From IMG/VR virus record IMGVR_UViG_2698536372_000020: DNA of 27,678 bases; one strand, 5' to 3'. The translations under genes and the position numbers were made by a program. This document shows, one piece after another, positions 1,221-23,410 of the stretch; the stretch's first letter is position 1; the number at the start of each line of letters is the position of its first letter. The notes beneath the pieces were generated by a model. The model was not told where the DNA came from. It ran no database searches and saw nothing but the letters and a program-made list of their open reading frames with translations. The DNA comes from a virus (taxonomy: Duplodnaviria; Heunggongvirae; Uroviricota; Caudoviricetes).

Positions 1221-1238
1221 CACATAAAACGTTTTTCA

Positions 1239-2527: not shown

Positions 2528-2531
2528 GGGA

Positions 2532-3230: not shown

Positions 3231-3239
3231 CAGAGCCTC

Positions 3240-6958: not shown

Positions 6959-7333
6959 CGTCAGCGCCTCATGCTCATCATCCACGGCATTATCAATGGC
7001 CCCCATACCGCTCAGCGACAGAACCATCTCCGCCCCCGCACCCAGGGCATCATACGACCATGTTGTAATAACGGATGCGCAAAGCGTCTCTACATCCTTA
7101 GACTGATCCGCATTCCACAGTGAGCGGGAAACCAGCCAGGCATTGATATCCATCCCCATCCGCAGAAAAGCAATCTGTCGTTCAGCCTCCGGCAGTTCTC
7201 CCTCCCCGGCATCAAACTTTGCCGTTCGCTGCTGAACAAACGTCAGATATTCAATTCTCTGCAGCCCGGACAGCTCACTGAGCACCACGGACTGTTTTTC
7301 ATAATTAAACGTGTCCTGTTTCAGAAACATCAT
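6944..7333 (-). CDS. G: Tail assembly chaperone G
   Basis: Start placed at ATG 7333 (MMFLKQDTFNYEKQSVVLSELSGLQRIEYL...), preceded by GGTGGAG; resembles lambda gpG (…VTLSELSALQRIEHL…). The track start 7372 lacks an SD and crowds the V stop. Confidence 0.82.
   Translation of the reverse strand: MMFLKQDTFNYEKQSVVLSELSGLQRIEYLTFVQQRTAKFDAGEGELPEAERQIAFLRMGMDINAWLVSRSLWNADQSKDVETLCASVITTWSYDALGAGAEMVLSLSGMGAIDNAVDDEHEALTPEKS
6950..6958 (-). other. Candidate -1 frameshift (slippery) site for G-T, minus-strand CCGGAAAAG
   Basis: A-rich run 11 codons inside the open T-frame and just upstream of the G stop. It resembles but is not identical to the lambda heptamer GGGAAAG as I recall it. Confidence 0.4.
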
Positions 7334-7346
7334 GTTCTCCACCTGC

Positions 7347-7370
7347 AAAAAAGCCCCGAATAACCGGGGC
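7347..7370 (-). terminator. Intrinsic terminator/attenuator between major tail gene V and chaperone gene G
   Basis: Minus-strand GC stem GCCCCG / CGGGGC (6 bp, 6-nt loop) immediately followed by six T, lying between the V stop (7391) and G start (7333). Confidence 0.5.
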
Positions 7371-7390
7371 AAATGATGAGTATCGTCCTG

Positions 7391-8134
7391 TTAACCTGCT
7401 GCGCTGACAGTCACCGCAGTCACAGCCACAAAATTCCCGTCAGCGGTCATGCCCACAATGCTGACACTGCCCTGCTTCACGCCTTTTACCGTGGCCACAA
7501 GTCCGTTCAGGGTAACCGTGGCAGTCTGTGGATCTGACGAATGCACACTGATCGCTTTGTCACTGGCTCCGTCAGGTTTTACTGTAAAGGTCAGCGTGGT
7601 GGTTGCTCCCACTTTTACACTGGCAGACGCCGGTGATACTGTCAGCCCGGTAACGCTCACGGTTTCAGTGCCTTCCTCTGCCAGATACGGACGCCCCACA
7701 CCGCTGATTTTCACAGTGCGGGTCATCACGTCTTTTGAGGCAATGGTTTTACCCAGTGAGCTCAGCCAGCCACGGAAAACATCAACAGTGCCGTTGGGAT
7801 ATTTGATACGAAACGCGCAGACTTCACCGGAGTCGAACAACTGAACCAGTTTTTTCTGCCCGCTGTCACCCGGACGCCAGGCCAGCGTCGCCGAAGTATC
7901 ACCAACGGATTTCTGCCCCTGGGTTGTCGTTTTCCAGTCTGCATCTTCATCATCGAGATAAGTGTCATCTTCTGCATCAGCGGTCATTTCGCCAGGTTGC
8001 AGATCCTTCACCATCGCAAGACGCAGCCAGTCAGTGTCCGACAAAGGGTTCGCAAACGCATCGCCGTTGCCGGTATACATCCAGAACGTCGTCCCCGCAC
8101 CTTTCGTCTTTGCCAGTGGATTTGGTGTGGTCAT
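7391..8134 (-). CDS. V: Major tail protein V with C-terminal Ig-like (Big_2-type) domain
   Basis: Start placed at ATG 8134 (MTTPNPLAKTKGAGTTFWMY...), preceded by TAAGGAGGTGG. The C-terminal beta-rich repeat (VTVSPASASVKVGATTTLTFTVKPDG...) is typical of Ig-like tail domains. Confidence 0.85.
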   Translation of the reverse strand: MTTPNPLAKTKGAGTTFWMYTGNGDAFANPLSDTDWLRLAMVKDLQPGEMTADAEDDTYLDDEDADWKTTTQGQKSVGDTSATLAWRPGDSGQKKLVQLFDSGEVCAFRIKYPNGTVDVFRGWLSSLGKTIASKDVMTRTVKISGVGRPYLAEEGTETVSVTGLTVSPASASVKVGATTTLTFTVKPDGASDKAISVHSSDPQTATVTLNGLVATVKGVKQGSVSIVGMTADGNFVAVTAVTVSAAG

Positions 8135-8144
8135 TACCACCTCC

Positions 8145-8546
8145 TTAATTCGTGTACGTGATCTGGTACGTGATTTCCGCCATCGCCCAGGTGGCCATCT
8201 CATTATCACGTTGATAGTTAAAACCGAGTGGGATCAGGGTGTCGATGAGTCCGGAAAGTGCCGGTATATCATTCAGGGCAGGGAAAATGGTGCTCTCCAT
8301 CCACATATCCAGCTCTGAATCCGGTGCCTGTGCCCGGATGAAGACGGCAATATGCAGAACAGCCTGCCAGTCATCTTCATCCGTCATTTTTCCGGTGTAC
8401 TGAGCATCACTCAGCCACACCGCCACGGCAGGCAGTTCCTGCGCATCAATAAATGCCGGAAGCCCGTCAAAAAACGTGGCGCTGTCTCCACACTGTTCCC
8501 GAAGGCGTGCCAGTACGGCCTGGCGGATTTGTGTATGTCGGTTCAT
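8145..8546 (-). CDS. U: Tail terminator protein U
   Basis: From ATG 8546 (MNRHTQIRQAVLARL...ATFFDGLPAFIDAQELPAVAVWL...); aligns with lambda gpU (MKHTELRAAVLDAL...ATFFDGRPAVFDEADFPAVAVYL). ATGA overlap with the Z stop. Confidence 0.85.
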   Translation of the reverse strand: MNRHTQIRQAVLARLREQCGDSATFFDGLPAFIDAQELPAVAVWLSDAQYTGKMTDEDDWQAVLHIAVFIRAQAPDSELDMWMESTIFPALNDIPALSGLIDTLIPLGFNYQRDNEMATWAMAEITYQITYTN

Positions 8547-9121
8547 CGGGTCAGCCATAACCTCAGTTGTTGTTTTAGTGCATACCCCAGCTGTTTCGGC
8601 ATTTCCGCAGCAATGATGTGGTCGCGGGCATCTTCAAATGCCTGTGTCAGCGATCCGGACAGCGGGATTTTCACCACATCAATGGGGTAACGATTTTTGC
8701 CATCAATACGTCGCATCACATGCCAGCGACCATTCGCCAGTTGCTGAATAAACGCATCCCGGAAAAGATATTTACCCACCTTCAGCACACTGCCACGGTA
8801 CTGCAGTTTTCCACCACGCCGGGCCAGTCTGACCCGGGCTGTCCCCAGCTTAATGGCGGGCAGATTGCCCCGGTTAACGCGGATCCTGACCGTCATTTTT
8901 CCTGACGGACTGGCTTTAAACACCCGGACACGCTGACGTACCAGTTTCAGGGGGATCCCTTTCACCTGGTTATCTCCCGCAACGGTATTCCCGGCAACCT
9001 GCCGGGTGGCAACCGAGACCGCTTTCTGTGCCACACGGTTTATCGCCCATGCGCTGGCCTGTGGCACCATACGGGTATCAAGGCTGTTCAGATTGCGGAT
9101 GGCATTCTCAAGCCCCTTCAT
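8543..9121 (-). CDS. Z: Minor tail / tail completion protein Z
   Basis: 192-aa ORF (MKGLENAIRNLNSLDTRM...) in the lambda Z position, same length as lambda gpZ as recalled. Confidence 0.78.
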   Translation of the reverse strand: MKGLENAIRNLNSLDTRMVPQASAWAINRVAQKAVSVATRQVAGNTVAGDNQVKGIPLKLVRQRVRVFKASPSGKMTVRIRVNRGNLPAIKLGTARVRLARRGGKLQYRGSVLKVGKYLFRDAFIQQLANGRWHVMRRIDGKNRYPIDVVKIPLSGSLTQAFEDARDHIIAAEMPKQLGYALKQQLRLWLTR

Positions 9122-9132
9122 CCCACACCTCT

Positions 9133-9408
9133 TTACTCAATAAAGATCATTGGCTTACCGTTAAAACGTTCATGCCGTGTGACCGTCCATTGTTGTCCGT
9201 CATAAACAACGCGATCCCCGCGCCGTGGGCGGTATCCCGAAGAAAACACCACCAGAGAGACCGCAGGTCCGGACAGAGCATTCAGCTCTGCCAGTGTTTC
9301 TCCCGGGATCACAATCATATCGACATCATTAATCGAGGCTGTCTTTCCCATCTTTCTGACCGTGATCGCATCCATACGCGCTGCCAGCCGGGAAAAGGGA
9401 TCAGACAT
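9133..9408 (-). CDS. Head-tail joining / connector protein (FII-like position)
   Basis: 91-aa ORF (MSDPFSRLAARMDAITVRKMGK...DGQQWTVTRHERFNGKPMIFIE) between the capsid module and Z; assigned by position and general resemblance to small head-tail adaptor proteins. Confidence 0.55.
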   Translation of the reverse strand: MSDPFSRLAARMDAITVRKMGKTASINDVDMIVIPGETLAELNALSGPAVSLVVFSSGYRPRRGDRVVYDGQQWTVTRHERFNGKPMIFIE

Positions 9409-9724
9409 TGAGTTTTACCGGCACTTCTTCTGCACTGGTTCCGGCATCTGCCCAGACAACCCCGACCAGCGGCTCAGAGCCGCTGTTAGTCAGCTGAACT
9501 TTTCCTGACTTCAGATAAACCTTCTTACCCGTTTTCATGTCATCCGTTTTCAGCTTAGGCAGCATAAACACACCTTCGGTTATGCCGTCGCCTGTTTCTC
9601 CCTGTGGAATATCGGTCAGCGCCACCGCAAAAACATCCCCCACCTGCACCAGATCTCCGCTGCTGATGGCTGCACTGGCAACAATCGCCACCGTTTTTCC
9701 TTCTTCTACAAAATTCTTTGCCAT
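9401..9724 (-). CDS. Small capsid-associated protein (DUF2190-like; possible head decoration or cement protein)
   Basis: Start placed at ATG 9724 (MAKNFVEEGKTVAIVASAAISSGDLVQVGDVFAVALTDIPQGETGDGI...), preceded by GGAG, directly downstream of the capsid gene. Confidence 0.45.
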   Translation of the reverse strand: MAKNFVEEGKTVAIVASAAISSGDLVQVGDVFAVALTDIPQGETGDGITEGVFMLPKLKTDDMKTGKKVYLKSGKVQLTNSGSEPLVGVVWADAGTSAEEVPVKLNV

Positions 9725-9767
9725 AACTGTCTCCGCACAGCCCCGTTCAGGGGCTGATTTCAGGTAC

Positions 9768-9786
9768 AAAAAAAGCCCTTACGGGC
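9768..9786 (-). terminator. Intrinsic terminator/attenuator just downstream of the major capsid gene
   Basis: Minus strand reads GCCC-GTAA-GGGC (GNRA-type tetraloop) followed by seven T, about 25 nt after the capsid stop at 9811. A second hairpin (9738-9756) lies just before the next start. Confidence 0.45.
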
Positions 9787-9810
9787 CATCAGAGTTGTTG
9801 TCTGCGACGT

Positions 9811-11769
9811 TTACGCCGTACATTTCACCAGGCCGCGGTGATCAACTGGCGCAACACCAGCGTCAATACGCACTTTCGTTGTCACGCCATCCACACTGAA
9901 GCCCTCCATCTGATCAATATATGGCGTATCCACACCGTTGAGATAAGCCACTTCAATCGTATCGGAGCCTTTGGACGCAGCCAGGTAGAAGGTGGTCTGG
10001 CTGTTATCATCAAGACGAGGCTCTGCAATAACGGTCGCAAAATCTTTCACCGGGTTAATAATACCGGCGTTAATGTCAGCCCCCTTGACACTTGAGGAGC
10101 GAATGACCTGGTTAGCAACAGACTCCATCGCCGTCGGTACCAGTACGAACGCAGGACGAATATTCAGATGACGCTCACCCTCTTTCTGAACGCGCATCAA
10201 CTGGCGGGCTTTATCCAGCGATGCCACGTCCATTGCCGCGCTCTCCAGTACGTTTGCATGTTTCGCTTTATCGAACAGACTTACATTATCTGTGGAGATT
10301 TTCGGGTTAGACGTCAGAATGGCATAAACCAGATCGGCAATAGTGGATTTCGCCGCACGGCCCAGCTTCATCGGGACATCGGTCAGCATATTCAGATCAT
10401 CATTGATAATGGCCTGACGGGTGATACTGAACAGCTCGCCATAGGTCGCCAGTGCAATAGTGGCCTGTTTATCTCCGGTGGTGACGTATTTATATTCTGC
10501 CCCTTCACGCACCTGACGCAGAGCACTGAAGCCCCCCATACCCACACGATGGGCAATTTTAAAATCAGACAACTGACCTTTCCGCGTCCACTGTTCATAG
10601 GTTTCAGGGGCATCTTCCCAGCCCTGCAGAATGGCTTTGTTCGCAACATCCAGCAGAATATTACCGAAGTCAGACGTACTGTGTGTGAACGCCGCACCGA
10701 CCATCTGCATCGGGTTATAACTGGAAACACCAATACCACGTTCAGTCAGTGACATACGGGCATATTCACGCAGGGTCATCCCGTTGTAGACATTATCACG
10801 TTCAGTTTTTTCAAACCCGGCGCGCGCCATCAGCGCCTGGCGGATCCCGTCCCCCACAAAATTACCGTTACCGGCATAAATATGAGCCGGGGTATTTTTA
10901 TTGGATGGCGTGGACTCGCGCCCCATCTCGTTCAACAGCTTTTCGCGGGCCTGCTCCAGCGAACATTCAGGATCGGCAAGACACTGAGCCTGCAACGACT
11001 GATAACGCCCGCCAAACATGGCAAACAGATCATTAATACCGTTTACACGCGCTTTTTGCTCTGCCAGGACCTGCGCACGGATGCTGTTTTCATCCACCAC
11101 GGGTGCTGCTGCCTGCACTGGCGTCCGGGAGGCTGCAGGTCCATCATCCTGTACGCGTGGAGCACTGTTGCGTGGCGGAGTAATCATATTTCGAATGGAT
11201 TCCGGCATCTTTTTAAATTCCTCTGTACGTTTTGACTGAATACATGCCATTGCCTTAACGGCTGGTGTCACCTGATCAGCAAATCCCTGTGCCAGACATT
11301 CGGCACCGGACATCCAGGTCTCATCCGCCAGCATGGCAGCAATTTCATCGGTGGTTTTCCCGGTTTTCTGTGCATAAGCGGGTAACAGAACCGCCTCAAC
11401 TTTATCGAGCAGGTCGGCATAGGTGCGCATGTCCTCCGCATCACCGCCCGTAAAGCCAAATGGTTTATGAATCATCATGAAGGAGTTTTCCGGCATAATG
11501 ACCGGGTTTCCTACCATCGCAATGACCGACGCCATTGACGCCGCCACACCGTCGACATAAACGGTAATGGACGCACCATGTGTTTTCAGCGCATTAAAAA
11601 TGGCGATGCCTTCAAAGACATCGCCACCCGGTGAATTAATATGGAGATTAATGTGGGTGATATCGCCCAGTGCATTCAGATCACTGATAAACTGCTTCGC
11701 TGTAACACCCCAGAAACCAATCTCGTCATAAATATAAATATCCGCGTCACTCTGGTGACCAGCCTGCAT
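9811..11769 (-). CDS. Prohead protease (ClpP-like) fused to HK97-fold major capsid protein
   Basis: Start placed at ATG 11769 (MQAGHQSDADIYIYDEIGFWGV...). The N-terminal ~200 aa show ClpP/S14-peptidase-like motifs (HINSPGGDVFEGIAIFNAL...MASVIAMVG...MMIHKP); the C-terminal ~350 aa resemble a major capsid protein. The track start 12030 lies deep inside the portal gene. Confidence 0.78.
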   Translation of the reverse strand: MQAGHQSDADIYIYDEIGFWGVTAKQFISDLNALGDITHINLHINSPGGDVFEGIAIFNALKTHGASITVYVDGVAASMASVIAMVGNPVIMPENSFMMIHKPFGFTGGDAEDMRTYADLLDKVEAVLLPAYAQKTGKTTDEIAAMLADETWMSGAECLAQGFADQVTPAVKAMACIQSKRTEEFKKMPESIRNMITPPRNSAPRVQDDGPAASRTPVQAAAPVVDENSIRAQVLAEQKARVNGINDLFAMFGGRYQSLQAQCLADPECSLEQAREKLLNEMGRESTPSNKNTPAHIYAGNGNFVGDGIRQALMARAGFEKTERDNVYNGMTLREYARMSLTERGIGVSSYNPMQMVGAAFTHSTSDFGNILLDVANKAILQGWEDAPETYEQWTRKGQLSDFKIAHRVGMGGFSALRQVREGAEYKYVTTGDKQATIALATYGELFSITRQAIINDDLNMLTDVPMKLGRAAKSTIADLVYAILTSNPKISTDNVSLFDKAKHANVLESAAMDVASLDKARQLMRVQKEGERHLNIRPAFVLVPTAMESVANQVIRSSSVKGADINAGIINPVKDFATVIAEPRLDDNSQTTFYLAASKGSDTIEVAYLNGVDTPYIDQMEGFSVDGVTTKVRIDAGVAPVDHRGLVKCTA

Positions 11770-11782
11770 CCTGAACCAGGAA

Positions 11783-13291
11783 TTATTCTTCGGACTGGTC
11801 GTCGGTGTGCTGCGGCTCCTGTCGTTTCGTTGCGGCACTACTGCCTCCTTTATCACTGGCCGGATCGGTATCAAATACCAGATCCAGCTTGCGGTTTTCA
11901 TCAATTTCGGCCTTGCGCCGACGTTTGACATCATCCGGATTACGACCACCAGCACGTACCCAGTCTGATTCTGTCGCCGCTCCACCACGAATCTGGATTT
12001 TCCAGGCCTCAGCCTCCTTAACAGGGTCAATCCACGGCATCACTGGTCCGGAATACACCGCGGTATACAGTGAAGAACGGTCAAGATCGCGGGGTAGCCT
12101 GATAACACCGGATGCCACAGCCTGTTTCAGCCATGCACGATACATCGGGCGGGTGACGGCACCAATAAACCAGTCCTGCAGGATCAGGTAGCCATCAGTG
12201 GATTCAACCAGCTCCTGACGCTGGGCGCTGTAAGTGCCGTTATAGTTGCGCGCTGTACTGGAAAAACTCAGACGACTGCCCGCCGCCACGGCACGCAACT
12301 GACCATTACGAAAAGTTTCAAGGTTAGGATTGGGGCGATCCGACTTCACCATTCCGATTTCTTCGCCGGGTTTCAGATCGTCGTAAATAATGCCCGGCTG
12401 AATGGTAAGCTCACGTTCATTCTCCTTTCTGCCATTACCATCCGGTTCATAGCTCTGCCCGTCGCCTTTCCGGATGTACATCCCCAGAGCAGCGGCGATC
12501 CTTGCTGCAGTCAGCTCAGAATCTTCATATTCTTTCAGGGCACTGAGGCGGATCAGCACACCGGACAACAAAGACGTCCCGCGCATCTGGTGCAGACGGC
12601 GAACAAATTTAAGATGCAGCATTCGCTCTGCATCCACTTCTTTGGTTTCCATCTGCCGTCCGGATACGGGACGGCTTTTATACACCAGATATTTTTCGGG
12701 ACGCCCCCAGTCATCAACAAACACGCCCTGATTCAGCCTGTTGCTCTCATCACTAGTCATGGGAATAAAGTCCGGCTCGAGCGCCTCCAGCCAGAAATGA
12801 ACACCGGCAGAAGGCGCCAGGCTGTTTATGCGCCCGGAAACCATCTGGGCAAACACCTCACCATCGCGCAGCCAGGTACGAAGCATCAGACGTTCCAGCA
12901 TCGGACGGGTAAACTGCCCGGTGACTTCCGGGCTGACAGACCATTCACTCCATCGGGTGCGAATCTCCGCAGCCAGGTCACGGGCAATGGCCCCATTGCG
13001 TAATACCGGATGTGGCTCGACAATAATCCCGTTTTTCCCCACCACCCGTTCTTCCAGCTTGTCAAATACACCAATAACCAGATCGTGGTTGTTATCAAGG
13101 TAACGGGCCTGCTCACGTAACGACACGGCCCCGTACTGGCTTAACTGGTCGGCAGTTCGGTTCTCCCGTCGGGCTTTGTGTGTCCGCGTCGTTTTTACGG
13201 CCTCATAAGCCTGGATCACCGCACGGGAACGCAGCCTTGCCGCTTTCCATCCTGGTGAAAAAACGCCAATCACATCATCAAGAATTGCCAT
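11783..13291 (-). CDS. Portal protein
   Basis: About 500-aa ORF between the gpW-like gene and the capsid gene. Start placed at ATG 13291 (MAILDDVIGVFSPGWKAARLR...), in TGATG overlap with the upstream stop. Confidence 0.85.
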   Translation of the reverse strand: MAILDDVIGVFSPGWKAARLRSRAVIQAYEAVKTTRTHKARRENRTADQLSQYGAVSLREQARYLDNNHDLVIGVFDKLEERVVGKNGIIVEPHPVLRNGAIARDLAAEIRTRWSEWSVSPEVTGQFTRPMLERLMLRTWLRDGEVFAQMVSGRINSLAPSAGVHFWLEALEPDFIPMTSDESNRLNQGVFVDDWGRPEKYLVYKSRPVSGRQMETKEVDAERMLHLKFVRRLHQMRGTSLLSGVLIRLSALKEYEDSELTAARIAAALGMYIRKGDGQSYEPDGNGRKENERELTIQPGIIYDDLKPGEEIGMVKSDRPNPNLETFRNGQLRAVAAGSRLSFSSTARNYNGTYSAQRQELVESTDGYLILQDWFIGAVTRPMYRAWLKQAVASGVIRLPRDLDRSSLYTAVYSGPVMPWIDPVKEAEAWKIQIRGGAATESDWVRAGGRNPDDVKRRRKAEIDENRKLDLVFDTDPASDKGGSSAATKRQEPQHTDDQSEE

Positions 13292-13503
13292 CAGAACCTC
13301 GCCAGCCGGTACCCGGGATGCCCCCGTCGTCGTGTAATCAGAGCCGCAAGGCGGCGCTCCCACTCCTGCCGTCCCTGCCGGATCTCAGATAAGTTTTCCA
13401 TGGTCATCTGCTGACCATTAAAGGTGACGGATTTTCCGTCCAGCACCGCCATTTCAGCTTCCGTATAACGCTGAATCATGGCTTCGATATCATTCTGGTT
13501 CAT
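13291..13503 (-). CDS. W: gpW-like head-tail joining protein
   Basis: 70 aa from ATG 13503 (MNQNDIEAMIQRYTEAEMAVLDGKSVTFNGQQMTMENLSEIRQGRQEWERRLAALITRRRGHPGY...), preceded by GGAGGA and in ATGA overlap with the terminase stop. Resembles lambda gpW (…QRRRGPAGFYV). Confidence 0.7.
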   Translation of the reverse strand: MNQNDIEAMIQRYTEAEMAVLDGKSVTFNGQQMTMENLSEIRQGRQEWERRLAALITRRRGHPGYRLARF

Positions 13504-15599
13504 AACCATCCTCCGGAAGTCAGCCAGGGGTTAACATCGTCAGTTACTGTTTTCTTCCGTTTTTGTTTTTTAACAGGCGTGGATACCGGTTCCGGTGAGG
13601 ATGACGGTTCGGTACTGTCCTGGACACACTCCAGCCAGGTCTCCCGGCTCGCCCACTCCGGTGCATCCGGCCAGCGGATCTTTTCGTATCCATGCAGAAT
13701 GACCAGAGCCTCGGCATACACCATCAGGTCAAAAGCTTCGTTGGCACCGCGACCCGGCTTACTCCATTTCCCGTCACTGCTCCGCTCTTCATACGTCAGT
13801 TCGTCGTAAAACCAGCTCCCCAGCCAGTCAGGGAAATGCACATAGCCTGGACCTGGCGAGTCACGCCATAACGCGTTATTCACCCGGTCTTTCAGGGCAT
13901 CCGTCTGAAGAAGCCAGAGCGGCACATCACCTGCGGCCTGCGCCCGGCGGCCCGTTCGTCCGGTGTTATCAGGGAATGTACGGCTGATCAGTTTTGCGCG
14001 CCGGATGCTGTCACCCTTAAACAGGTAAATACGTTTACCAAGGCCATCACGACGGCAACGACGCCAGAATTTATAGGCATTATCAGTGACCCCGTCTTCA
14101 CCGCCGGAGTCCACCGCCATTGCCATCAGTCGCATTTGTTGAGAAGGATCGGAGGCCAGCGGCCAGCTTTTATGAAAAACATCCGTCAGCAGGACATCCC
14201 AGTCTTCCGGATAGCTGGCCGGATCAATTCGCTGGCTCTCCCCGTCGCAGTCACTGCGCAATGACTGCGTGATGTTGTAACGATCAATAATCCAGCGTTC
14301 GCCACGACTGCCATAGCCCGTTACCTGAACCACAAAACGGCGATGACGTCCCGCCTGCACATCCACTGTCGCCACAAGGAAATTAACGCCATCCGGCACA
14401 CTGCGGGAAGGAACTGGCTCTGCCCGCTGCTCAAGCAGTTCACTTTTTCGTTGCTCCATGCTGGCACGAGGAAGATAAGGCAATCCCCAGTCGGTGTTGA
14501 TAACCGCCCTGAGTGTTTCTTCGCTTCCTGTCGCTTCATACTCCTGTTCTGCAGTCAGTAATTTGTAAACCAGTTGCGCCCAGGTCTGATACGCAGCAGC
14601 TGGCCCTTCCATCCAGAAACTGGCGATACGGGAGCGGCGCGGTTCACCGGAAACGTTGCCGTTACGATCAATGACCTGACCTTCACGCAACCAGACTCCT
14701 GCACTATTGAGCTCACGCTTTTTCTCCGCAGTGATAATGCCGCTGCAGTGCGGGCAAAGTAGATACGCCGCCTCACTGGCTTTAAAGGGATCCGGTTCAT
14801 TACGGTAGCCGGTCATGGCATCCATGGCTGGCTGAAAATATTCACCGCAGTGCGGACATGACCAGTACCAGCGGCGGCGGTCACCACGATTGTAAAGGGA
14901 AAGAATACCAGTCGTCGGTGGCGCTTCATGAGGCGACTTACGTCGCCATTTGCTGTCGCAGATGTCACGTCCCGGCGAGCTCTCCACCAGAGTCATCCCA
15001 GCGGACATAAATGTGGTGGTACGTTTTGAGGCCAGGGAGAAACCATCACCCTCGCTGTCGATATTCTCCGGAAAACGGTCGTAATCGGTTAAGGCGACAA
15101 ACCGGTAATCCGACGACGACATAATGTTGACCGAGGGCCAACCAATTTTAAGGAACGAGCCATCCCTGAACGTCTTATCATGGACATTATTGTCGTTACG
15201 ACGTGGACTCATTCTTTTCTTTACCGCCGCACTGCTTCTGAACGTTCTGTCGAGGCGCTTTTTAGAATGCTCGCGGGCCTTATCTTCGGTCATCTGCACA
15301 ACGAGCATGTCCGAAGGATCGCAAACGATGGTATAGACAATCCATCCATCGATCAGACCAATGGTCTTCCCTGTTCGCGCAGGACCAACAAAAATCACCG
15401 CATCGTATTCACGCGATGCCAGGCAGTTCATGGGCTCAATGATGTAGGGTGTCAGTTCAGGATCCCATGGCACCGAGTTACCAGCCCCCTTGGGAACACG
15501 CATGAATTTTTTAACAGCCTCCGAAATCGGCATGCGACGTGGTGGGGAAAATCCTGCCGATATGTCCCTTCCCAAATTTCGGGCTGATGAAAAACCCAT
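13500..15599 (-). CDS. Terminase large subunit (lambda gpA family)
   Basis: 699-aa ORF with a P-loop-like VGPARTGKT motif and a CPHC...CPHC zinc-finger-like segment, directly downstream of the Nu1-like gene. Confidence 0.9.
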   Translation of the reverse strand: MGFSSARNLGRDISAGFSPPRRMPISEAVKKFMRVPKGAGNSVPWDPELTPYIIEPMNCLASREYDAVIFVGPARTGKTIGLIDGWIVYTIVCDPSDMLVVQMTEDKAREHSKKRLDRTFRSSAAVKKRMSPRRNDNNVHDKTFRDGSFLKIGWPSVNIMSSSDYRFVALTDYDRFPENIDSEGDGFSLASKRTTTFMSAGMTLVESSPGRDICDSKWRRKSPHEAPPTTGILSLYNRGDRRRWYWSCPHCGEYFQPAMDAMTGYRNEPDPFKASEAAYLLCPHCSGIITAEKKRELNSAGVWLREGQVIDRNGNVSGEPRRSRIASFWMEGPAAAYQTWAQLVYKLLTAEQEYEATGSEETLRAVINTDWGLPYLPRASMEQRKSELLEQRAEPVPSRSVPDGVNFLVATVDVQAGRHRRFVVQVTGYGSRGERWIIDRYNITQSLRSDCDGESQRIDPASYPEDWDVLLTDVFHKSWPLASDPSQQMRLMAMAVDSGGEDGVTDNAYKFWRRCRRDGLGKRIYLFKGDSIRRAKLISRTFPDNTGRTGRRAQAAGDVPLWLLQTDALKDRVNNALWRDSPGPGYVHFPDWLGSWFYDELTYEERSSDGKWSKPGRGANEAFDLMVYAEALVILHGYEKIRWPDAPEWASRETWLECVQDSTEPSSSPEPVSTPVKKQKRKKTVTDDVNPWLTSGGWL

Positions 15600-15607
15600 T
15601 ATTCCTC

Positions 15608-16165
15608 CTAGAGACTCTCTCCTTCCTCATCAGGAATTAATTCAGCAGCACAAGCCTCGTAGGATTTTTCCTGAAGAGTGTATCGCAGGTCATCAATGGC
15701 CTGCTGTACAACGCCGACGGCCTGAGGAGTCAGGGCGCAATCGCGTTCAAGAACATCCGGAATTGTCTCCAGAACCTGGACGACAGCCTTTCTCATGGAC
15801 GAATAGACGATGACTACTTCATCAACGGGGATGAGTTTTCGCTGCTCCTTTTCCAGCTTGATCCTTTCATTTTCAGATTGGTACCAGTCCTTTCTCTCTT
15901 TCGGCTCCATACGGGATGGATCATGAACAGAGTCTGCTGCCTCATGCTTCACACTAAACAGGGCTGGCCCGACATGCTGCAGGGCGTAAACGGGGTTCCC
16001 CCTGACAGTCGCAGCCACAGGAGTGTTAGCCGCGAGGAGCCGTTTTTTTACTGTGTCCCGGTGAAGCCCAAAGGCCTCAGCGATTTTAAAAACACTCCAG
16101 TAATAAGCATCACCGATCCCGCTCACATTTGACATAAGCAACTCCATCTGGCAGGTGAAAATCAT
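15608..16165 (-). CDS. Terminase small subunit (lambda Nu1-like DNA packaging protein, N-terminal HTH)
   Basis: HTH-like segment SVFKIAEAFGLHRDTVKKRL near the N-terminus; C-terminus ...AELIPDEEGESL echoes lambda Nu1 ...DELIPGLL. The true start may be an internal Met (MELLMSNVSG, GGAG upstream). Confidence 0.75.
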   Translation of the reverse strand: MIFTCQMELLMSNVSGIGDAYYWSVFKIAEAFGLHRDTVKKRLLAANTPVAATVRGNPVYALQHVGPALFSVKHEAADSVHDPSRMEPKERKDWYQSENERIKLEKEQRKLIPVDEVVIVYSSMRKAVVQVLETIPDVLERDCALTPQAVGVVQQAIDDLRYTLQEKSYEACAAELIPDEEGESL

Positions 16166-16319
16166 GTTTATTTATATATTTCAATTAATTGCAAACTGGT
16201 CTAATGACAGGGAGAAAGAAATATTGTACAGGTGAAAAGAGAAATAACTTTTAATTATCAATAAATTACCAAACATGCTGCCGCCGCCATGGAAATGCAA
16301 AAACTAGCCTTTTTCCGCG

Positions 16320-16331
16320 ACGCTCCCGCCC
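16320..16331 (-). other. Candidate cosN-like cohesive-end site (minus strand GGGCGGGAGCGT)
   Basis: Matches 8 of 12 positions of the lambda cosN sequence GGGCGGCGACCT as I recall it, about 160-200 bp upstream of the Nu1-like start, where cos is expected. Speculative. Confidence 0.3.
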
Positions 16332-16360
16332 CGTGGCAGGGGCCCCCACCGGGAGGACCC

Positions 16361-16383
16361 GACAGCCTGACAGCCTGACAGCC
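16361..16383. repeat. Short tandem direct repeat, GACAGCCT x2 plus partial third copy
   Basis: Read directly: gacagcctgacagcctgacagcc, next to the cos-like GC-rich segment. Confidence 0.7.
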
Positions 16384-16519
16384 GTGATGAGCATCTGATA
16401 CAGCGCTTTACATAATGGCATAGGAATAATTCAGAAGGACATCACAGCATGCCCACACAAATTAGTGTGAGTGTCCTGTTTCTTCCTACGCACAGGACTG
16501 ACGAGCATGAGGGGAAAAT

Positions 16520-16687
16520 ATGCGAACCATAAATGCCTCATCTTCAGCAATGCAACCGGCATCCGAACAGGACGATATTGTAAATTCACCTAATTACGAG
16601 GACATTGCAGTAGTTGAATTGCAGCTCTGTATTAGCCTGACAGTGACAGAATGCGATATTGACTCTGTCACAGGTGAAATAGTTTGA
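16520..16687 (+). CDS. Candidate small protein, 55 aa (MRTINASSSAMQPASEQDDIVNSPNYEDIAVVELQLCISLTVTECDIDSVTGEIV); not in the ORF track because it is under 60 aa
   Basis: ATG at 16520 preceded by GAGGGG 5-7 nt upstream; open to TGA at 16685-16687; converges on the 68-aa minus-strand gene with a 20-nt gap. Confidence 0.3.
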   Translation: MRTINASSSAMQPASEQDDIVNSPNYEDIAVVELQLCISLTVTECDIDSVTGEIV

Positions 16688-16707
16688 ATGATTAGCAGTT
16701 ATGGTGC

Positions 16708-16914
16708 TCAGTCAACCACCAGGGAATAATCCTTCGAATTCTTATCGTGCTTCACCAACGCTGCCTCAATTGCCCTGAATGCTTCCAGAGACACCTGATG
16801 TTCTATACATGCAATTACAACATCCGGGTAACTCATAGAAATGGTGCTATTAAGCATATTTTTTACACGAATCAGATCCAACGAGACTTCATCAGCAGAT
16901 TGTTCTTTATTCAT
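16708..16914 (-). CDS. Hypothetical 68-aa protein (moron; possibly YnfO-like by position)
   Basis: ORF with ATG at 16914 preceded by GGAG at about 8 nt spacing; acidic, soluble-looking; no recognisable motif. Confidence 0.55.
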
Positions 16915-17214
16915 TTTGTCGCTCCATGCGTTTGCTCGTCATCTAGCGGTTAAAATATTACTTCAAATCTTACTGCATAAAAGAGGAAAAGTATGAAAGT
17001 TTGAGTACATCGACCTTACATACATCTGTCGGTTGCATATCCCTCCTGGATGCCAGCAAGGCTCAATTTTGTTACGCAATCAACACTATTCATTAAAAAC
17101 AGGCTTAATATTTGACATAAATCATCAACAAAACACAAAGAGGTCAGACCAGATTGAAACAATAAACACGATAATGCTAACTACGCGCCATCGTATCACA
17201 TGGAAGGTTTACCA

Positions 17215-17625
17215 ATGGCTCAGGCTGCCATTTTTAAAGAAATATTCGATCAAGTGCGTAAAGATTTAAACTGTGAATTATTTTATTCTGAGCTAAAACG
17301 TCACAATGTCTCACTTTATATTTACTATTTAGCCACAGATAATATTCACATTGTGTTAGAAAACGACAACATAGTGTTAGTAAAAGGACTCAAAAAGGTT
17401 GTAAATGTTAAATTCTCCAGAAACAAACATCTTATAGAGACCTCCTATAATAAGTTGAAATCAAAAGAAATCACATTTCAACAATACAGGGAAAATCTTG
17501 CTAAAGCAGGAGTTTTCCGATGGGTTACAAATATCCAGGAACACCAAAGATATTACTATGCCTTTGATAACTCATTACTATTTACTGAAAGCATCCAGAA
17601 AACTACACAGATCTTACCACGCTAA
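17215..17625 (+). CDS. ydfO: DUF1398-family protein, YdfO-like
   Basis: Start placed at ATG 17215 ([43 protein letters not shown]...), with GGAAGG 7 nt upstream, giving 136 aa. Assigned by recalled similarity and by position next to the GnsB-like gene. Confidence 0.65.
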
Positions 17626-17633
17626 ACCATAAC

Positions 17634-17662
17634 GTCCGGCTTCTCTCACTCCTGAGCCGGAC
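17634..17662 (+). other. Stem-loop (8-bp stem gtccggct / agccggac, 13-nt loop) between the convergent ydfO-like and gnsB-like genes; possible terminator
   Basis: Inverted repeat read directly; weak T-tract; location between convergent genes. Confidence 0.3.
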
Positions 17663-17776
17663 TGCATTGGTTTAATAAAAACCATCAACAATTGTGATTT
17701 AGATATTCGGAACCATTCAAATATAACAAAACCCCGAAAAAACGAGGTTTATGGATAAATTTTATTATTGAATACA

Positions 17777-17950
17777 TCAGATTAAATTAATCTTGACATC
17801 ATAGCTTTCAAGACCCGTCATTTTTTCCCGTGCGGTAAACTGAATACTGGTAACTTCTTTCCCGGTCTTTTTCTTAAGTTCAATAATTTTTTTTGTTATA
17901 TATTCAGAAATATCTGCTTCTGCTTTTGTTTTTAAGTTTTCAATATTCAT
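17777..17950 (-). CDS. gnsB: GnsA/GnsB-family small protein, 57 aa; not in the ORF track
   Basis: Reverse-complement translation M(M)NIENLKTKAEADISEYITKKIIELKKKTGKEVTSIQFTAREKMTGLESYDVKINLI, stop at 17777-17779, SD AAGAGGAA upstream. Matches the Gns family as recalled. Confidence 0.75.
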   Translation of the reverse strand: MNIENLKTKAEADISEYITKKIIELKKKTGKEVTSIQFTAREKMTGLESYDVKINLI

Positions 17951-18121
17951 CATTTCCTCTTTTAGTCTGTTATGACTTTCCAGTTACACAGTAAGTCGAT
18001 TATATGGTGCAAACGTGTAAAAGATAAGATGAAACATCGCAATAATCAACATACGATAGTCTAAATTTTACACAAACAGACAAAGAGAATTTTCCTGAAT
18101 TATCAATACAATAGCATCAAA

Positions 18122-18352
18122 TCAACTCAAGAGCCTTATTGCTGCTTCCAGAATTTCTTCTGAAGTAACATGTCGATCCGCGGCTACATAAATGACTTTA
18201 TGATCTCCGGTCAGAGATGGAAACCCTGCGGCCATTACAGTAAGGTGTGTTTTTTCGCCATTTGGATATTCACGCATGATGGTGTTAACTCCAGTCATCG
18301 CTGGCACTACCACTGCTGGTTCAGAGTTAAAAAAAACTATGATTTTTTTCAT
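18122..18352 (-). CDS. Hypothetical 76-aa protein between the GnsB-like gene and cspI
   Basis: Start placed at internal ATG 18352 (MKKIIVFFNSEPAVVVPAMTGVNTIMREYPNGEK...). The track TTG start at 18394 lies inside the upstream terminator T-tract. Confidence 0.5.
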   Translation of the reverse strand: MKKIIVFFNSEPAVVVPAMTGVNTIMREYPNGEKTHLTVMAAGFPSLTGDHKVIYVAADRHVTSEEILEAAIRLLS

Positions 18353-18396
18353 GATGTTACCGTAGTATGTGAGTATCCATCGAATAGATACCAAGC

Positions 18397-18416
18397 AAAA
18401 AAGCTCCCGAAGGAGC
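18397..18416 (-). terminator. Intrinsic terminator downstream of cspI
   Basis: Minus strand: 5-bp GC stem with UUCG-type tetraloop (GGCTCC-TTCG-GGAGC) followed by six T. Confidence 0.5.
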
Positions 18417-18623
18417 CTTCATTTTCACTTTTTTAAATCCAACGACAGACGGCTGGCATTTAAGTATTGTGAAATATTATCAAATGTAATCATCATTGAT
18501 TTACAAAAGATACATTTTGCCCCGAAAGGATTCATGTCAGAAACATCAAAAGATGATGTTCTATACTGGGAACCATGACAACACGGGCATCTAAAGTGAA
18601 TATGGTTTGTAATATTGTCTACC

Positions 18624-18836
18624 TCAAAGCGCCACTACATGAACAGCGGCAGGACCTTTAGGTCCGTTCTCAATACCAAATTCAACTTCCTGATTCTCAG
18701 TTAATGTTTTGAAATCGTTGCTCTGAATTGCTGAGAAATGGACAAACACATCTTTGCTGCCATCTTTCGGCGTGATGAAACCAAAACCTTTTTCAGGGTT
18801 AAACCATTTCACTAAACCAGTCATTTTGTTAGACAT
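18624..18836 (-). CDS. cspI: Cold-shock protein, CspA family
   Basis: 70-aa [73 protein letters not shown] with RNP1/RNP2-type motifs; long 5' leader typical of csp genes; matches CspI as recalled. Confidence 0.9.
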
Positions 18837-19198: not shown

Positions 19199-20222
<1,024 letters not shown>

Positions 20223-20226
<4 letters not shown>

Positions 20227-20534
20227 ATATATTTATGATGAGGACGCTCGTGCTTATTGGCAGGATTTTCAATCTTAAAGGAGTACTGATGCTGCAGATA
20301 AGACTCAACTTTTTCTGACAATTTTTCTGCTACTTCCAGGAAGACTTGCCGGACGCTCCTTCTGGCTGCTGCCTCATAAAACTCCAGCGCAGCTCCTTCA
20401 ACACGGTCCATGGCGACATCCAGGTCAAAAATTTCACCGTCAAAGCGTTCCTTGTCCTGTAAGGCTACAGTTACCGTAACTTTATTCTCAAAATTACGGA
20501 CTCCTTTCACAACCAGTTCATAGTCTTGAGTCAT
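20223..20534 (-). CDS. ydfR: YdfR-like protein (DUF1327) inserted between holin and endolysin
   Basis: 103-aa ORF (MTQDYELVVKGVRNFENKVTVTVALQDKERFDGEIFDLDVAMDRVEGAALEFYE...), same length and position as Qin YdfR as recalled. Confidence 0.7.
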
Positions 20535-20538
20535 TGGA

Positions 20539-20754
20539 TTACTCTCCTCTCGCAGCCTTACGCCTGTCTTCTTTAATCTTGAAATAAAGATTTGTCAGAT
20601 ACGTCAGCAGGCCAAAAACCAGGCTACCCAGCACACCGATTGCAGCCCACTGTGACGGAGTTACTTTATCGAGTAACTGTAATGCCCAGAAACCAGCATT
20701 ACCCGCCGATGTGCCATAGGCAACACCTGTTGTTAACTTATCCATTGATTTCAT
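20539..20754 (-). CDS. essQ: Class II holin (S21-like pinholin) with dual-start motif MKSM
   Basis: 71 aa from ATG 20754 ([71 protein letters not shown]), SD GGTGAGGAT upstream, two transmembrane segments. Met1/Met4 arrangement as in the phage 21 antiholin/holin pair. Confidence 0.85.
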
Positions 20755-20943
20755 ATCCTCACCCCGATGTACACGGATGGTGCAATATGTTTGAAAAAGA
20801 TCGGAGTCTACGGGGTAGTTTTGACAGCACACGTTGTTCTCAACGGCGCTAAAGAAACATACACATTAAAAATGTGAGTAATTATTTTGAAAGAAAGTCA
20901 TATATAAAATAATAATACGAGAAATGTTTTCATATTTAGTGTA

Positions 20944-20964: not shown

Positions 20965-20973
20965 GAAAAGCCT

Positions 20974-21144
20974 ATGTCAGAACGTAAAGACTCAAAATCA
21001 CGCCGTAATTATCTCGTTAAATGTTCCTGCCCAAACTGCACCCAAGAGTCAGAACACAGTTTTTCAAGAGTACAAAAAGGTGCCCTTTTGATCTGCCCTC
21101 ATTGCAACAAAGTATTCCAGACAAATCTTAAAGCTGTAGCCTGA
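20974..21144 (+). CDS. Small zinc-ribbon protein, 56 aa (two CxxC pairs), YnfU-like; not in the ORF track
   Basis: ATG 20974 with AGGAAAAG SD; MSERKDSKSRRNYLVKCSCPNCTQESEHSFSRVQKGALLICPHCNKVFQTNLKAVA; stop 21142-21144. Confidence 0.6.
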   Translation: MSERKDSKSRRNYLVKCSCPNCTQESEHSFSRVQKGALLICPHCNKVFQTNLKAVA

Positions 21145-21206: not shown

Positions 21207-21226
21207 AAACCCGCCTGAGCGGGTTT
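21207..21226 (-). terminator. Intrinsic terminator (8-bp stem, 4-nt loop) with A-tract on one side and T-tract on the other; likely terminates cspB and may act in both directions
   Basis: aaaaaacccgc-ctga-gcgggttt read directly; on the minus strand the stem is followed by TTTTTTATT. Confidence 0.5.
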
Positions 21227-21507
21227 GAGATTGTGGTGCTTTTTGTGGGAGTCATCCACTTACGCACTTTGTTTTGCGATGCCAGCAGTTAGCTTCTGCT
21301 GTGAAACTATTCATGCAGCAAACCTGCACTTCACCACAATGGTTAGCATACTTTTCCTGATTAAGATTTTGCCAAATATGCTAGCCATTGTTTCATGTAT
21401 TGGACCTCCTTACTTTTTATTAAAGAGATCCAATATTCACTACTCTGTCCGTATCTCTACTCAGGCATCAGCCTTCTTCGTTATCGTATACAGACGAGCG
21501 ATGAATT

Positions 21508-21723
21508 TTAATCAGTAATGATGACATTTGCTGCTGCAGGACCTTTAGCACCTCTCTCTATAGAGAAGGTAACCTTTTGACCTTCAAATAAGGTTCGATA
21601 ATTATCATTCTGAATCGCAGAAAAATGCACAAACACATCTTTACTACCATCAACAGGAGAAATAAAGCCGAAACCTTTATCAGCGTTAAACCATTTTACT
21701 AAACCAGTCATTTTATTTGACAT
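21508..21723 (-). CDS. cspB: Cold-shock protein, CspA family
   Basis: 71-aa [74 protein letters not shown]; matches CspB as recalled; divergent from cspF. Confidence 0.9.
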
Positions 21724-22023
21724 TCTACATTCCTTAACTTGAGCCTTTCGGCATAAATGGTTTGCATAACAGAAACGACTTCGTACTTAATTGGAGAGAC
21801 TCAAAGAAGGAATAAGTGAATAACACCTGAAATGAGAACTGCTTTAGTAAACTACTTCGTATATCGTCTGTTCTTCAAACCGACGCAATCATTAACGCAT
21901 AGTTGAACATATGAAGCAATGTTTATTTTAGACATCCAGCCATCTTCAACCCCATCAAAAAACTATAGCTTTCTTCAGGAACGTGTGTATAGTGCGCCAA
22001 GTTATCAGTATTAAGGAATTTTT

Positions 22024-22236
22024 TTGTCCCGTAAAATGACAGGAATTGTCAAAACCTTTGACGGCAAAAGCGGCAAGGGTCTTATCACCCCATCCGATGG
22101 TCGTATCGATGTCCAGCTTCATGTTTCAGCGCTCAATCTCCGCGATGCAGAAGAAATTACCACCGGATTACGCGTGGAATTTTGCCGGATAAATGGTCTG
22201 CGTGGCCCTTCAGCTGCCAATGTTTACCTTTCATGA
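22024..22236 (+). CDS. cspF: Cold-shock-domain protein, divergent CspF/CspH type
   Basis: 70-aa [73 protein letters not shown]; apparent TTG start at 22024; resembles CspF as recalled. Confidence 0.85.
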
Positions 22237-22290
22237 GCTATATTAAAGCTTTAATTTCAGGCCCCATCGGATCACACATGGAGAGTTTTT

Positions 22291-22380
22291 ATGAATAACC
22301 CCGTCTGTCTTGATGACTGGTTGATTGGCTTTAAAAGCTTATGCTGTACTTTGGCCGTAATAGCTCTGCTAATAATATAA
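22291..22380 (+). CDS. Candidate 29-aa hydrophobic peptide ([29 protein letters not shown]) downstream of cspF; not in the ORF track
   Basis: ATG 22291 preceded by GGAGAG about 7 nt upstream; C-terminal half is a predicted membrane helix; stop at 22378-22380. Confidence 0.3.
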
Positions 22381-22528
22381 TAAGCAGACTCATTGTGTTT
22401 AGGGACATTGTACTGGAAGAAAACATTTTAAACATCAGGCAAATAACCAAGTCACCAGCTAAATAATAAGTTAACAGACATGAGTCCCGGGATGAGATTC
22501 AACATTACCATTGCCCCATTTAAAGCAC

Positions 22529-22552
22529 AAAACCCGCTCATCAGCGGGTTTT
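22529..22552. terminator. Strong bidirectional intrinsic terminator: candidate tR' for the late leader (minus strand) and terminator for cspF (plus strand)
   Basis: Perfect 10-bp stem aaaacccgct / agcgggtttt with 4-nt loop, followed on the plus strand by a T-rich run; lies about 40 nt downstream of the predicted late promoter start. Confidence 0.5.
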
Positions 22553-22597
22553 CTACTTTTTCTTAACGTCGGGTATACAAAGCCCATCGTTGAAAAA

Positions 22598-22626
22598 ATT
22601 TTATCCATATTTTTTGAAAAATGCAA
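22598..22626 (-). promoter_or_regulatory. Candidate Q-dependent late promoter (pR'-like sigma70 promoter; the qut site would overlap)
   Basis: Minus strand -35 TTGCAT (22626-22621), 17-bp spacer, -10 TAAAAT (22603-22598), about 30 bp downstream of the Q stop, as in lambdoid pR'. Confidence 0.5.
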
Positions 22627-22657
22627 ACATCATGTCGCCATCTTCAGCAAAAATCAT

Positions 22658-23410
22658 TTATCTCGTCACCTTCCTCAATTGCGCTTCCGCGTATGCTTCT
22701 TCCTGCCAGCACTTTGTTACCAGTTTACCAATGACGTCCGCATACCCCTTATACCACTGATAATCGGTCAGGTCTGGTACCAGCTTCTGGACATGACGTC
22801 GTGCCAGCGTGGTCGGTAAACGACTAAACCGGTTTCCATTACAACGCCCACAAATCTTATATACCGGTACGCCATGAAACCGGGTTCTTTTTTCATCCAG
22901 AACAATCCCTTTACCCTTACACCCTCTGCACGCTGTGCTGACTTCACCCTTACCATGGCAATGCTGACATAGTTCCTTCACCCATTCTTCCTTGATTACA
23001 GATTCCCCGCGTCGGTAGTGTTTCACCACTTCGCGCAATACATTATAAAATCCCGTACCTGAACAATGCTCACAGCGAGCCTTACTTGCCGCAGACCTGG
23101 AGTAATCAGCAAAGGCAAAATTCACGAGGTAAGGAATAATCTGTAACCGGATTTCTTCACTCAATTTGTTCAATGTCGGGTTATCCAGTGCCATCGCGTA
23201 ATTTAGCAGGCCTTCAATCGCAAACTGAGGGTCCTGAACACCAACTTTTGCCAGAAATAAGGCCAACCCAAGTGGTGCTTTCGACTGCACCATCCCCTGC
23301 GCTGCCATTACATCCGTAATTGTTAAACAACCGGTGCCTGTCGCTGGAGCGTCATCGCTCAATTTTGGAGATTTTGGGGAGTAATATTTTGGTAAGGCTT
23401 CAAGGTTCAT
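22658..23410 (-). CDS. quuQ: Late-gene antiterminator Q
   Basis: 250 aa from ATG 23410 (MNLEALPKYYSPKSPKLSDD...), GGAG upstream; Cys-rich zinc-binding region (CEHCSGTG...CQHCHGKGE...CRGCKGKG...CGRCNG) typical of Q proteins. Confidence 0.82.
   Translation of the reverse strand: MNLEALPKYYSPKSPKLSDDAPATGTGCLTITDVMAAQGMVQSKAPLGLALFLAKVGVQDPQFAIEGLLNYAMALDNPTLNKLSEEIRLQIIPYLVNFAFADYSRSAASKARCEHCSGTGFYNVLREVVKHYRRGESVIKEEWVKELCQHCHGKGEVSTACRGCKGKGIVLDEKRTRFHGVPVYKICGRCNGNRFSRLPTTLARRHVQKLVPDLTDYQWYKGYADVIGKLVTKCWQEEAYAEAQLRKVTR

Follow-up and report, generated by a model that had tools for sequence, protein, structure and literature searches.

Analysis of a 27,678-nt stretch of DNA of a Caudoviricetes virus (IMG/VR record IMGVR_UViG_2698536372_000020; the whole stretch is referred to below as the window) indicated that the region directly downstream of its Q antiterminator gene is very probably the late regulatory module (promoter pR', Q-utilisation site qut and terminator tR') of a lambdoid prophage of the Qin type with a Q protein from the lambda-Q family. 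The element is of a textbook kind, i.e. a lambda-like late gene switch, and is well supported; it was unannotated until now and is not novel in kind. A preliminary description, made from the letters of the sequence, had proposed a pR'-qut-tR' identity for the DNA 3' of Q. This proposal is strongly supported by (i) homology with lambda pR', (ii) conservation of the module in relatives of Q and (iii) a minus-strand RNA 3' end mapped in vivo at the hairpin in Escherichia coli K-12. The hexamers, their spacing, the hairpin and the start of the holin gene were all found by direct reading of the sequence (Table 1), and the numbers originally given hold. Support for the core interpretation is stronger than the letters alone allowed, and the possible regulatory consequences drawn from it are not novel in kind.

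The DNA region tested around the module (positions 20400-23500; 3.1 kb) is 100% identical to that of E. coli O26:H11 str. 11368 and other enterohaemorrhagic E. coli chromosomes. The cryptic prophage Qin of K-12 shares 99.7% identity with the window over 6.8 kb around the site, and its module is identical. Of the 5,426 complete E. coli genomes, 1,628 (about 30%), K-12 included, carry the module, which occurs at no less than 99% identity in 1,246 records. At this site, two full RefSeq records (K-12 and O26:H11 11368) lack any annotated promoter, terminator or RNA, and no description of the promoter was found in the literature on quuQ, ydfT, cspF and Qin.

The predicted promoter of the window reads TTGCAT-17-TAAAAT-TTTTTC-AACGATGGG, and lambda pR' reads TTGACT-17-TAAATT-TGACTC-AACGATGGG. 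In the window, AACGATGGG begins after a 6-nt gap, so that the predicted start (A 22591) lies 7 nt past the -10 hexamer. The composite TAAAWT-N6-AACGATGGG was found at a single place in the window, and 100 shuffles yielded none; it is this match to lambda pR', a feature absent from the preliminary description, that lifts the site above chance. Lambdoid phages carry a Q-binding element (QBE) between the -35 and -10 hexamers, and their earliest transcribed bases contain a pause signal that resembles a -10 hexamer (PMC4914094); a sigma-dependent pause element is a -10-like sequence, often with a discriminator-like one after it (PMC9191641). A putative pause element of this kind (AACGAT plus GGG) is present in the initial transcribed region of the window, with the same sequence and spacing as in lambda. 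Of the 17 spacer positions, 11 are the same as in the lambda spacer (counted by eye on the aligned sequences), and the spacer core TTCAAAAA..TGG is nearly invariant across Q relatives. Over the whole -40..+30 region, the window and lambda share 37 of 70 positions, which are clustered in the hexamers, the spacer and +1..+9.

A further stretch, ATGATT..GATGGCGACAT..GATG, lies between the Q stop codon and the -35 hexamer (22627-22657, minus strand) and is recognisable upstream of lambda pR' (ATGATT..GATGGCAACAT) and in Shigella phage SfV. It could reflect shared ancestry or be an upstream promoter element.

Downstream of the promoter, the hairpin AAAACCCGCT-GATG-AGCGGGTTTT (22552-22529) forms a perfect 10-bp stem with a 4-nt loop, its first base being at +40. 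In silico folding of a 72-nt RNA gave -30.4 kcal/mol (z = -6.4), and the hairpin alone, which is followed by a U-run, gave -19.5 kcal/mol. The Term-seq data of K-12 (Adams et al. 2021, PMC7815308, supplementary file 1) contain a minus-strand RNA 3' end at 1642356, classed as "orphan", i.e. with no gene assigned. This end appears once per growth-condition tab in all three conditions (two rows: about 103,600 reads in lysogeny broth at an optical density of 0.4 and about 55,400 reads in a later tab), and the sequence printed for it terminates ...AGCGGGTTTTGTG[C]. Since the K-12 module is identical, position 1642356 corresponds to window position 22525, 8 nt past the G+C stem, and with a start at 22591 the predicted RNA is 67 nt long. 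The read counts given in the same table for sokC (66,698) and sgrS (6,222) place this end within the range of known small RNAs. Both the hairpin and the K-12 3' end thus identify an intrinsic terminator shortly 3' of the promoter that ends a short RNA. Such an abundant orphan 3' end is what a constitutive pR' ended at tR' predicts; lambda 6S RNA and StxS are precedents for short pR'-tR' RNAs (PMC7547250). The start itself is predicted from promoter geometry, and the abundant 3' end 67 nt further on in uninduced K-12 implies nearby initiation.

Conservation of the module was examined in 102 loci, comprising 97 Q-relative loci drawn from viral and genome collections as well as five annotated records. 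The pattern TTGNNN-16/18-TANNNT-5/8-AACGATGGG was matched exactly in 93 of them. The nine others comprise two oppositely oriented copies, one locus that ends at the Q gene and six whose pause element deviates at one or two positions (AATGAT, AAAGAT or GACGAT). Promoter, pause element, hairpin and U-run were identified in all 101 fetched loci with sequence past the Q gene, down to about 40% Q identity. These relatives come from Escherichia, from Shigella phage SfV and from seven further genera (Kosakonia, Mangrovibacter, Phytobacter, Atlantibacter, Buttiauxella, Scandinavium and Entomohabitans). Every relative retains the TTG of the -35 hexamer (variants TTGCAT, TTGCAA, TTGTCA, TTGATT and TTGCTA) and the TA...T of the -10 hexamer, the spacing being fixed at 17 nt. 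A G+C-rich hairpin with a U-run lies within +28..+69 in 29 of the 30 distinct sequences, lambda being the exception, and its stems differ among relatives (CCCGCU/AGCGGG, CCUCGC/GCGGGG, CCCGCC../GCGGG, GCCUCGC/GCGGGGC). The similarity among loci ends a few bases past the U-run, which is where a control module that moves together with Q would be expected to give way to exchangeable cargo.

Two deposited phage genomes, PhiR42_1 and 2H10, also show the order Q/pR'/tR'/cspF/cspB/holin. A 51-aa open reading frame (22471-22626, minus strand), annotated as a hypothetical protein in PhiR42_1, spans the -35 and -10 hexamers and the terminator, and relatives show no similarity beyond the U-run; the frame was probably called as a gene in error.

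An alternative is that the hairpin chiefly terminates the convergent plus-strand cspF-ynfS transcript and that the promoter hexamers are a chance match. A terminator scan did rate the hairpin as terminator-like in the plus-strand orientation (tail CTACTTTTTC) and not in that of the minus strand, where the G+C stem is followed by UUUUGUGC, and an A-run before the stem together with a U-run after it gives the look of a bidirectional terminator. However, a hairpin with a U-run occurs at the same distance from the promoter, without cspF, in SfV, mEp460, the Stx2k phage (Stx, Shiga toxin) and other genera. It is likewise retained in Escherichia sp. E1V33, which lacks the cassette, and in loci in which cspF is frameshifted and a 259-bp deletion is present. 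Because the hairpin is found even with cspF missing or degenerate, it belongs to the Q module and not to cspF, and an origin as the terminator of cspF itself is ruled out. Moreover, the K-12 Term-seq tables (three conditions, with cold shock outside them) contain the minus-strand end in each condition but no plus-strand end at the hairpin (none at 164238x or 164239x), and the match of AACGATGGG to lambda is not due to chance. We consider this alternative highly improbable: termination of cspF as the sole role of the hairpin is contradicted, while cspF may make secondary use of it in the cold.

The cspF-ynfS cassette (21963-22520 region) has short ATGGGG repeats on either side and behaves like a separate insert. 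Its decayed form (259-bp deletion plus frameshift) is a common E. coli variant.

A candidate 5'-terminal stem, in which +19..+27 is complementary to +1..+9, was present in the predicted fold of the short RNA. Over 20 distinct relatives, 98.8% of the cells of this pairing are paired, compared with 27-53% in slid controls. The changes observed are one-sided transitions only, those on the 3' side all keeping the pairing, and so constitute weak evidence. The stem may protect the 5' end of the RNA, or may only reflect a constraint acting at the DNA level. An analogue is seen in lambda (AACGA/UCGUU at +1..5 and +19..23).

The short RNA might itself be functional in lysogens, acting in trans like StxS, with antitermination being secondary or lost in cryptic copies. 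StxS, which derives from the pR'-tR' region of Stx phages and binds Hfq (PMC7547250), offers a precedent. The abundance of the 3' end in K-12, whose Qin is annotated as cryptic (about 104,000 reads, to be compared with the counts for sgrS and sokC above), the retention of the module in the genomes and records enumerated above and the conservation of the 5' stem also speak for such a role. On the other hand, the RNA ends in ...UUUUGUGC, which makes a poor U tail of the Hfq type, relatives do not conserve the unpaired linker that joins its two stems, no Rfam family matches the site, and a DNA-level role in Q loading would explain the conservation equally well. The Rfam search (E <= 1 over 19000-24000) gave nothing besides the cspA thermoregulator on cspB and two matches due to chance. 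A functional RNA of this kind is therefore judged unlikely.

The identification of the module as pR'-qut-tR' is consistent with the properties of its Q protein, which is encoded by the PF03589 gene directly 5' of the module. Q matched the Q-lambda structure PDB 7UBM (E = 6.9e-36) and shares 41% identity with Q-lambda in the alignment, which places it in the lambda-Q family. The N-terminal 44 residues of Q-lambda form an exit-channel "nozzle" (PMC9388147), and the equivalent residues are well conserved in the Q protein of the window, G39 included. Compared with Q-lambda, this protein carries a 47-aa insert (residues about 116-162) in the zinc-ribbon arm, which in Q-lambda contacts QBE positions 11-13 (PMC9388147). 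The insert doubles the CXXCXGXG motifs of Q from two to four, and a DnaJ zinc-domain match (DnaJ_CXXCXGXG) was obtained (E = 8.4e-9).

A Q length of 250 aa is common to the Q proteins of SfV, mEp460, 2H10 and the Stx2k phage. Directly upstream of Q lies ydfU (23424-24473, minus strand), a DUF968/HNH-like gene, and the same is true of the Stx2k phage; genes of similar length and position are found upstream of Q in SfV, mEp460 and 2H10 (loci L004 and L104 were compared). The ydfU-Q pair seems to travel together.

Several observations weigh against the identification of the site as pR'-qut-tR'. The first concerns the hexamers, which match the consensus at 8 of 12 positions with a 17-nt spacer (-35, 3/6, TTG only; -10, 5/6). 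The consensus scan detected 10 promoter-like sites in 19500-24000 compared with 7.9 +/- 2.8 in shuffles, and since these counts are alike, the hexamers alone do not rise above chance; the term "near-consensus sigma70 promoter" used in the preliminary description was an overstatement. Secondly, the pause-site consensus T-N-Y-G is expected at about +14..+17 (PMC9191641), where it is found in lambda, but in the window it occurs at +11..+14 (TTTG); the window reads TATA at +15..+18, and most Q relatives have TATG there. Thirdly, no 5' end was found for the predicted start (K-12 1642422, minus strand) in the supplements of ROSE (in vitro run-off) and SMRT-Cappable-seq (SMRT, single-molecule real-time), which have no entry for it. 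The U-tract (UUUUGUGC) is also short. Furthermore, a second orphan minus-strand 3' end is located 168 nt further on (K-12 1642188, equivalent to window position 22357) in the second growth-condition tab. It has about 88,000 reads, is antisense to ynfS and follows a stem TCTGCT...AGCAGA. It may represent read-through of a leaky tR' or a product of processing. Finally, the consensus scan rated a minus-strand site just upstream of the holin gene (20908-20881) at 9/12, which is considered below.

Table 1. Features of the window in and around the late regulatory module (positions refer to the whole stretch).
Feature	Position	Strand	Basis or remarks
Q antiterminator gene (ydfT/quuQ)	22658..23410	-	250 aa; PF03589, E = 3.9e-54; annotated antitermination protein
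Q stop codon TAA	22660-22658	-	sequence
-35 hexamer TTGCAT	22621..22626	-	begins 31 nt past Q stop
17-nt spacer TTTTCAAAAAATATGGA, candidate QBE	22604..22620	-	likeness to lambda spacer
-10 hexamer TAAAAT	22598..22603	-	sequence
Predicted +1 (A 22591) and putative sigma-dependent pause element AACGAT plus GGG, +1..+9	22583..22591	-	as in lambda pR'
Candidate 5'-terminal RNA stem, +19..+27 complementary to +1..+9	22565..22573	-	in minimum free energy fold
tR'-equivalent intrinsic terminator	22520..22552	-	stem 22552-22529, tail UUUUGUGC, RNA 3' end 22525
Predicted constitutive pR'-tR' RNA, 67 nt	22525..22591	-	3' end measured in K-12, 5' end from promoter geometry
cspF-ynfS cassette, antisense to late transcript	22024..22380	+	annotation; Pfam CSD match
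cspF	22024-22236	+	antisense
ynfS, 29-aa protein	22291-22380	+	antisense
cspB moron, sense	21207..21884	-	coding sequence 21508-21723; cspA-type thermoregulator in 5' untranslated region; hairpin 21226-21207
ynfU zinc-ribbon gene, antisense	20974..21144	+	Pfam PF23499; annotation
Promoter-like site TTTATA-16-AATAAT upstream of holin	20881..20908	-	consensus scan
Lysis cassette: holin (S21 type, 20539-20754), ydfR, lysozyme, Rz-like gene	19199..20754	-	Pfam; annotation
Rest of late operon: cspI-ynfQ-ynfR-ynfN and gnsB morons, terminase, portal, capsid, tail, J	1..18836	-	annotation
Further terminator-like hairpins	17750-17729, 9787-9774, 7370-7353	-	terminator scan

As shown in Table 1, the late functions are all located on the minus strand, in the order Q, lysis genes, a second accessory cluster and terminase to J, which extends to position 1. 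The lysis and morphogenesis genes (holin, lysozyme, Rz-like, terminase, portal, capsid, tail and J) thus follow the module in the orientation of the predicted transcript, the holin ATG (20754) being at +1838 from the predicted start. Unlike K-12 Qin, the window copy has a full-looking terminase-to-tail late operon.

Annotation and coordinates also confirmed that 1.8 kb of accessory genes precede the holin gene, some of them antisense, with the sense gene cspB and its hairpin on the path. The antisense orientation of morons on this path was likewise correctly recognised, but their number is three (cspF, ynfS and ynfU) and not two as first counted. The arrangement of partly antisense cargo between tR' and the lysis genes is known and common, as like layouts are shown by PhiR42_1, 2H10, phiSTEC1575-Stx2k and lambda (bor). 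Geometry is what points to a possible antisense regulation of cspF, ynfS and ynfU by the late transcript. The 5' untranslated region of cspB matched Rfam RF01766 (cspA thermoregulator; 161.6 bits).

The canonical hairpin of cspB (21226-21207) would lie in the path of a Q-modified polymerase. Q bypasses intrinsic as well as Rho-dependent terminators (PMC4914094), and override of this hairpin by Q would be expected by analogy. No minus-strand end at this hairpin is present in the K-12 Term-seq data, in which it coincides with a plus-strand 3' end (1641060); the latter fits use of the hairpin as a terminator of ynfU. The main minus-strand 3' end near cspB in these data is at 1641224/1641226 (window about 21393-21395; 0.6-1.2 million reads), located 113 nt past the cspB stop codon at a long stem-loop without a U-run.

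The second moron cluster (17215-18836), located between the Rz-like gene and terminase, contains cspI, ynfQ, ynfR, ynfN and gnsB in the sense orientation and a fourth antisense gene, encoding a DUF1398 protein (17215-17625, plus strand). The hairpin at 17750-17729 (minus strand) differs in just a few bases of its loop from the sequence found at the orphan K-12 3' end 1637558.

Comparison of loci with different cargo revealed that similarity upstream of the holin ATG reaches no further than about 30 bp. In three of these loci (L067, L069 and L071) a cargo terminator lies directly before the holin gene, and one is annotated before S in SfV. Both features fit a dependence of the lysis genes on antiterminated read-through.

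They also bear on the alternative that the lysis genes are served by a separate promoter a short way upstream of the holin gene (TTTATA-16-AATAAT, 20908-20881) and that Q-linked read-through is dispensable, at least in Qin-type elements. Apart from the score of this site in the consensus scan, genomic SELEX (systematic evolution of ligands by exponential enrichment) with the K-12 sigma-70 holoenzyme lists the same hexamers, in the essQ-cspB spacer, as a constitutive promoter for essQ--rrrQ-ydfP (PMC3946193), and minor-sigma holoenzymes bind this spacer in vitro (PMC5493296). However, the resolution of SELEX is coarse and ynfU was unannotated at that time. An overlapping divergent plus-strand site (TTGAAA-18-AATAAT, 20887-20916; 10/12), which may belong to ynfU, could explain the binding, and the DNA is AT-rich and flagged as bound by H-NS (PMC3946193). 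An unregulated holin-lysozyme promoter would presumably also be harmful to a lysogen. Taken together with the short conserved region upstream of the holin gene and the cargo terminators that directly precede it in several relatives, these points make a self-sufficient lysis promoter improbable.

The mechanism proposed for the module takes the positions of the elements, their conservation, the family membership of Q and the in vivo RNA 3' end of K-12 from the data presented above, and its other steps from lambda. Sigma-70 RNA polymerase would initiate constitutively at A 22591, after which sigma region 2 would re-bind the -10-like AACGAT (+1..+6), causing the complex to pause at about +13 to +17. 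Without Q, the polymerase would escape, halt at the hairpin and free the 67-nt RNA ending at 22525. After induction, Q produced from the early transcript would bind the spacer between the -35 and -10 hexamers and engage the paused complex, probably with NusA, to yield a terminator-resistant polymerase. This polymerase would pass tR' and proceed antisense through cspF-ynfS, then sense through cspB and its hairpin and antisense through ynfU, to reach the holin gene at +1838 and continue through >20 kb of lysis and virion genes. Two extensions of this scheme appear rather doubtful, namely that the 67-nt RNA has a StxS-like regulatory role of its own, aided by the 5' stem derived from the pause element, and, separately, that Q-driven transcription silences cspF, ynfS and ynfU while co-expressing cspB and cspI in lytic growth.

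These results fill an annotation gap, as an unannotated module is assigned to a site carried by nearly a third of complete E. coli genomes, and they explain an "orphan" 3' end of the K-12 Term-seq data. The module also provides a natural lambda-Q variant for mechanistic work, having the same pause element, a terminator 40-67 nt from the start and an enlarged, two-zinc Q arm, and it is a tractable case of late transcription meeting convergent accessory genes. The current understanding of Q antitermination is unchanged by the findings.

A close known counterpart of the module is the lambda pR'/qut/tR' region, with which it shares (i) a homologous Q, (ii) a promoter just past Q, (iii) the layout of a -10 hexamer, a 6-nt gap and AACGATGGG and (iv) a terminator followed by late genes on the same strand. 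An antisense moron, bor, is also present inside the lambda late region. The two systems differ in several respects. Lambda tR' lies at +193 (PMC4914094) and the window terminator at +40..+67, so that the respective RNAs are about 194 nt and 67 nt long. The -35 hexamer is TTGACT in lambda and TTGCAT in the window, and the spacers differ at 6 of 17 positions. Q-lambda lacks the 47-aa insert that adds a second CXXCXGXG pair to the DNA-contacting arm of the Q protein of the window. Moreover, about 0.6 kb separates +1 from S in lambda (record positions 44587 to 45186), whereas 1.8 kb of cargo precedes the holin gene in the window.

In Shiga-toxin phages (StxS; Sy et al. 2020, PMC7547250), a constitutive promoter is ended directly 3', as predicted for the window, and the stx and tRNA genes located between tR' and the lysis genes are expressed by antitermination; the accessory genes of the window occupy the same place. 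Phage phiSTEC1575-Stx2k carries the same Q subfamily and module, followed by 4.3 kb of cargo before the holin gene (three tRNA genes, stx2AB and an antisense iraM-like gene). In contrast, the cargo of the window consists of cold-shock-family genes and genes for small proteins, each apparently with its own signals. Shigella phage SfV (GenBank U82619) encodes a Q protein that is 95% identical to that of the window and carries the same promoter and pause element. A "putative rho-independent terminator" has already been annotated in SfV at the place equivalent to tR', with a second one directly before holin S, but its cargo (orf47, orf48) includes neither csp genes nor antisense genes. The prophage Qin of K-12 (quuQ/ydfT-cspF-cspB-ynfU-essQ), which is annotated as cryptic, contains an identical module and is the source of the Term-seq evidence.

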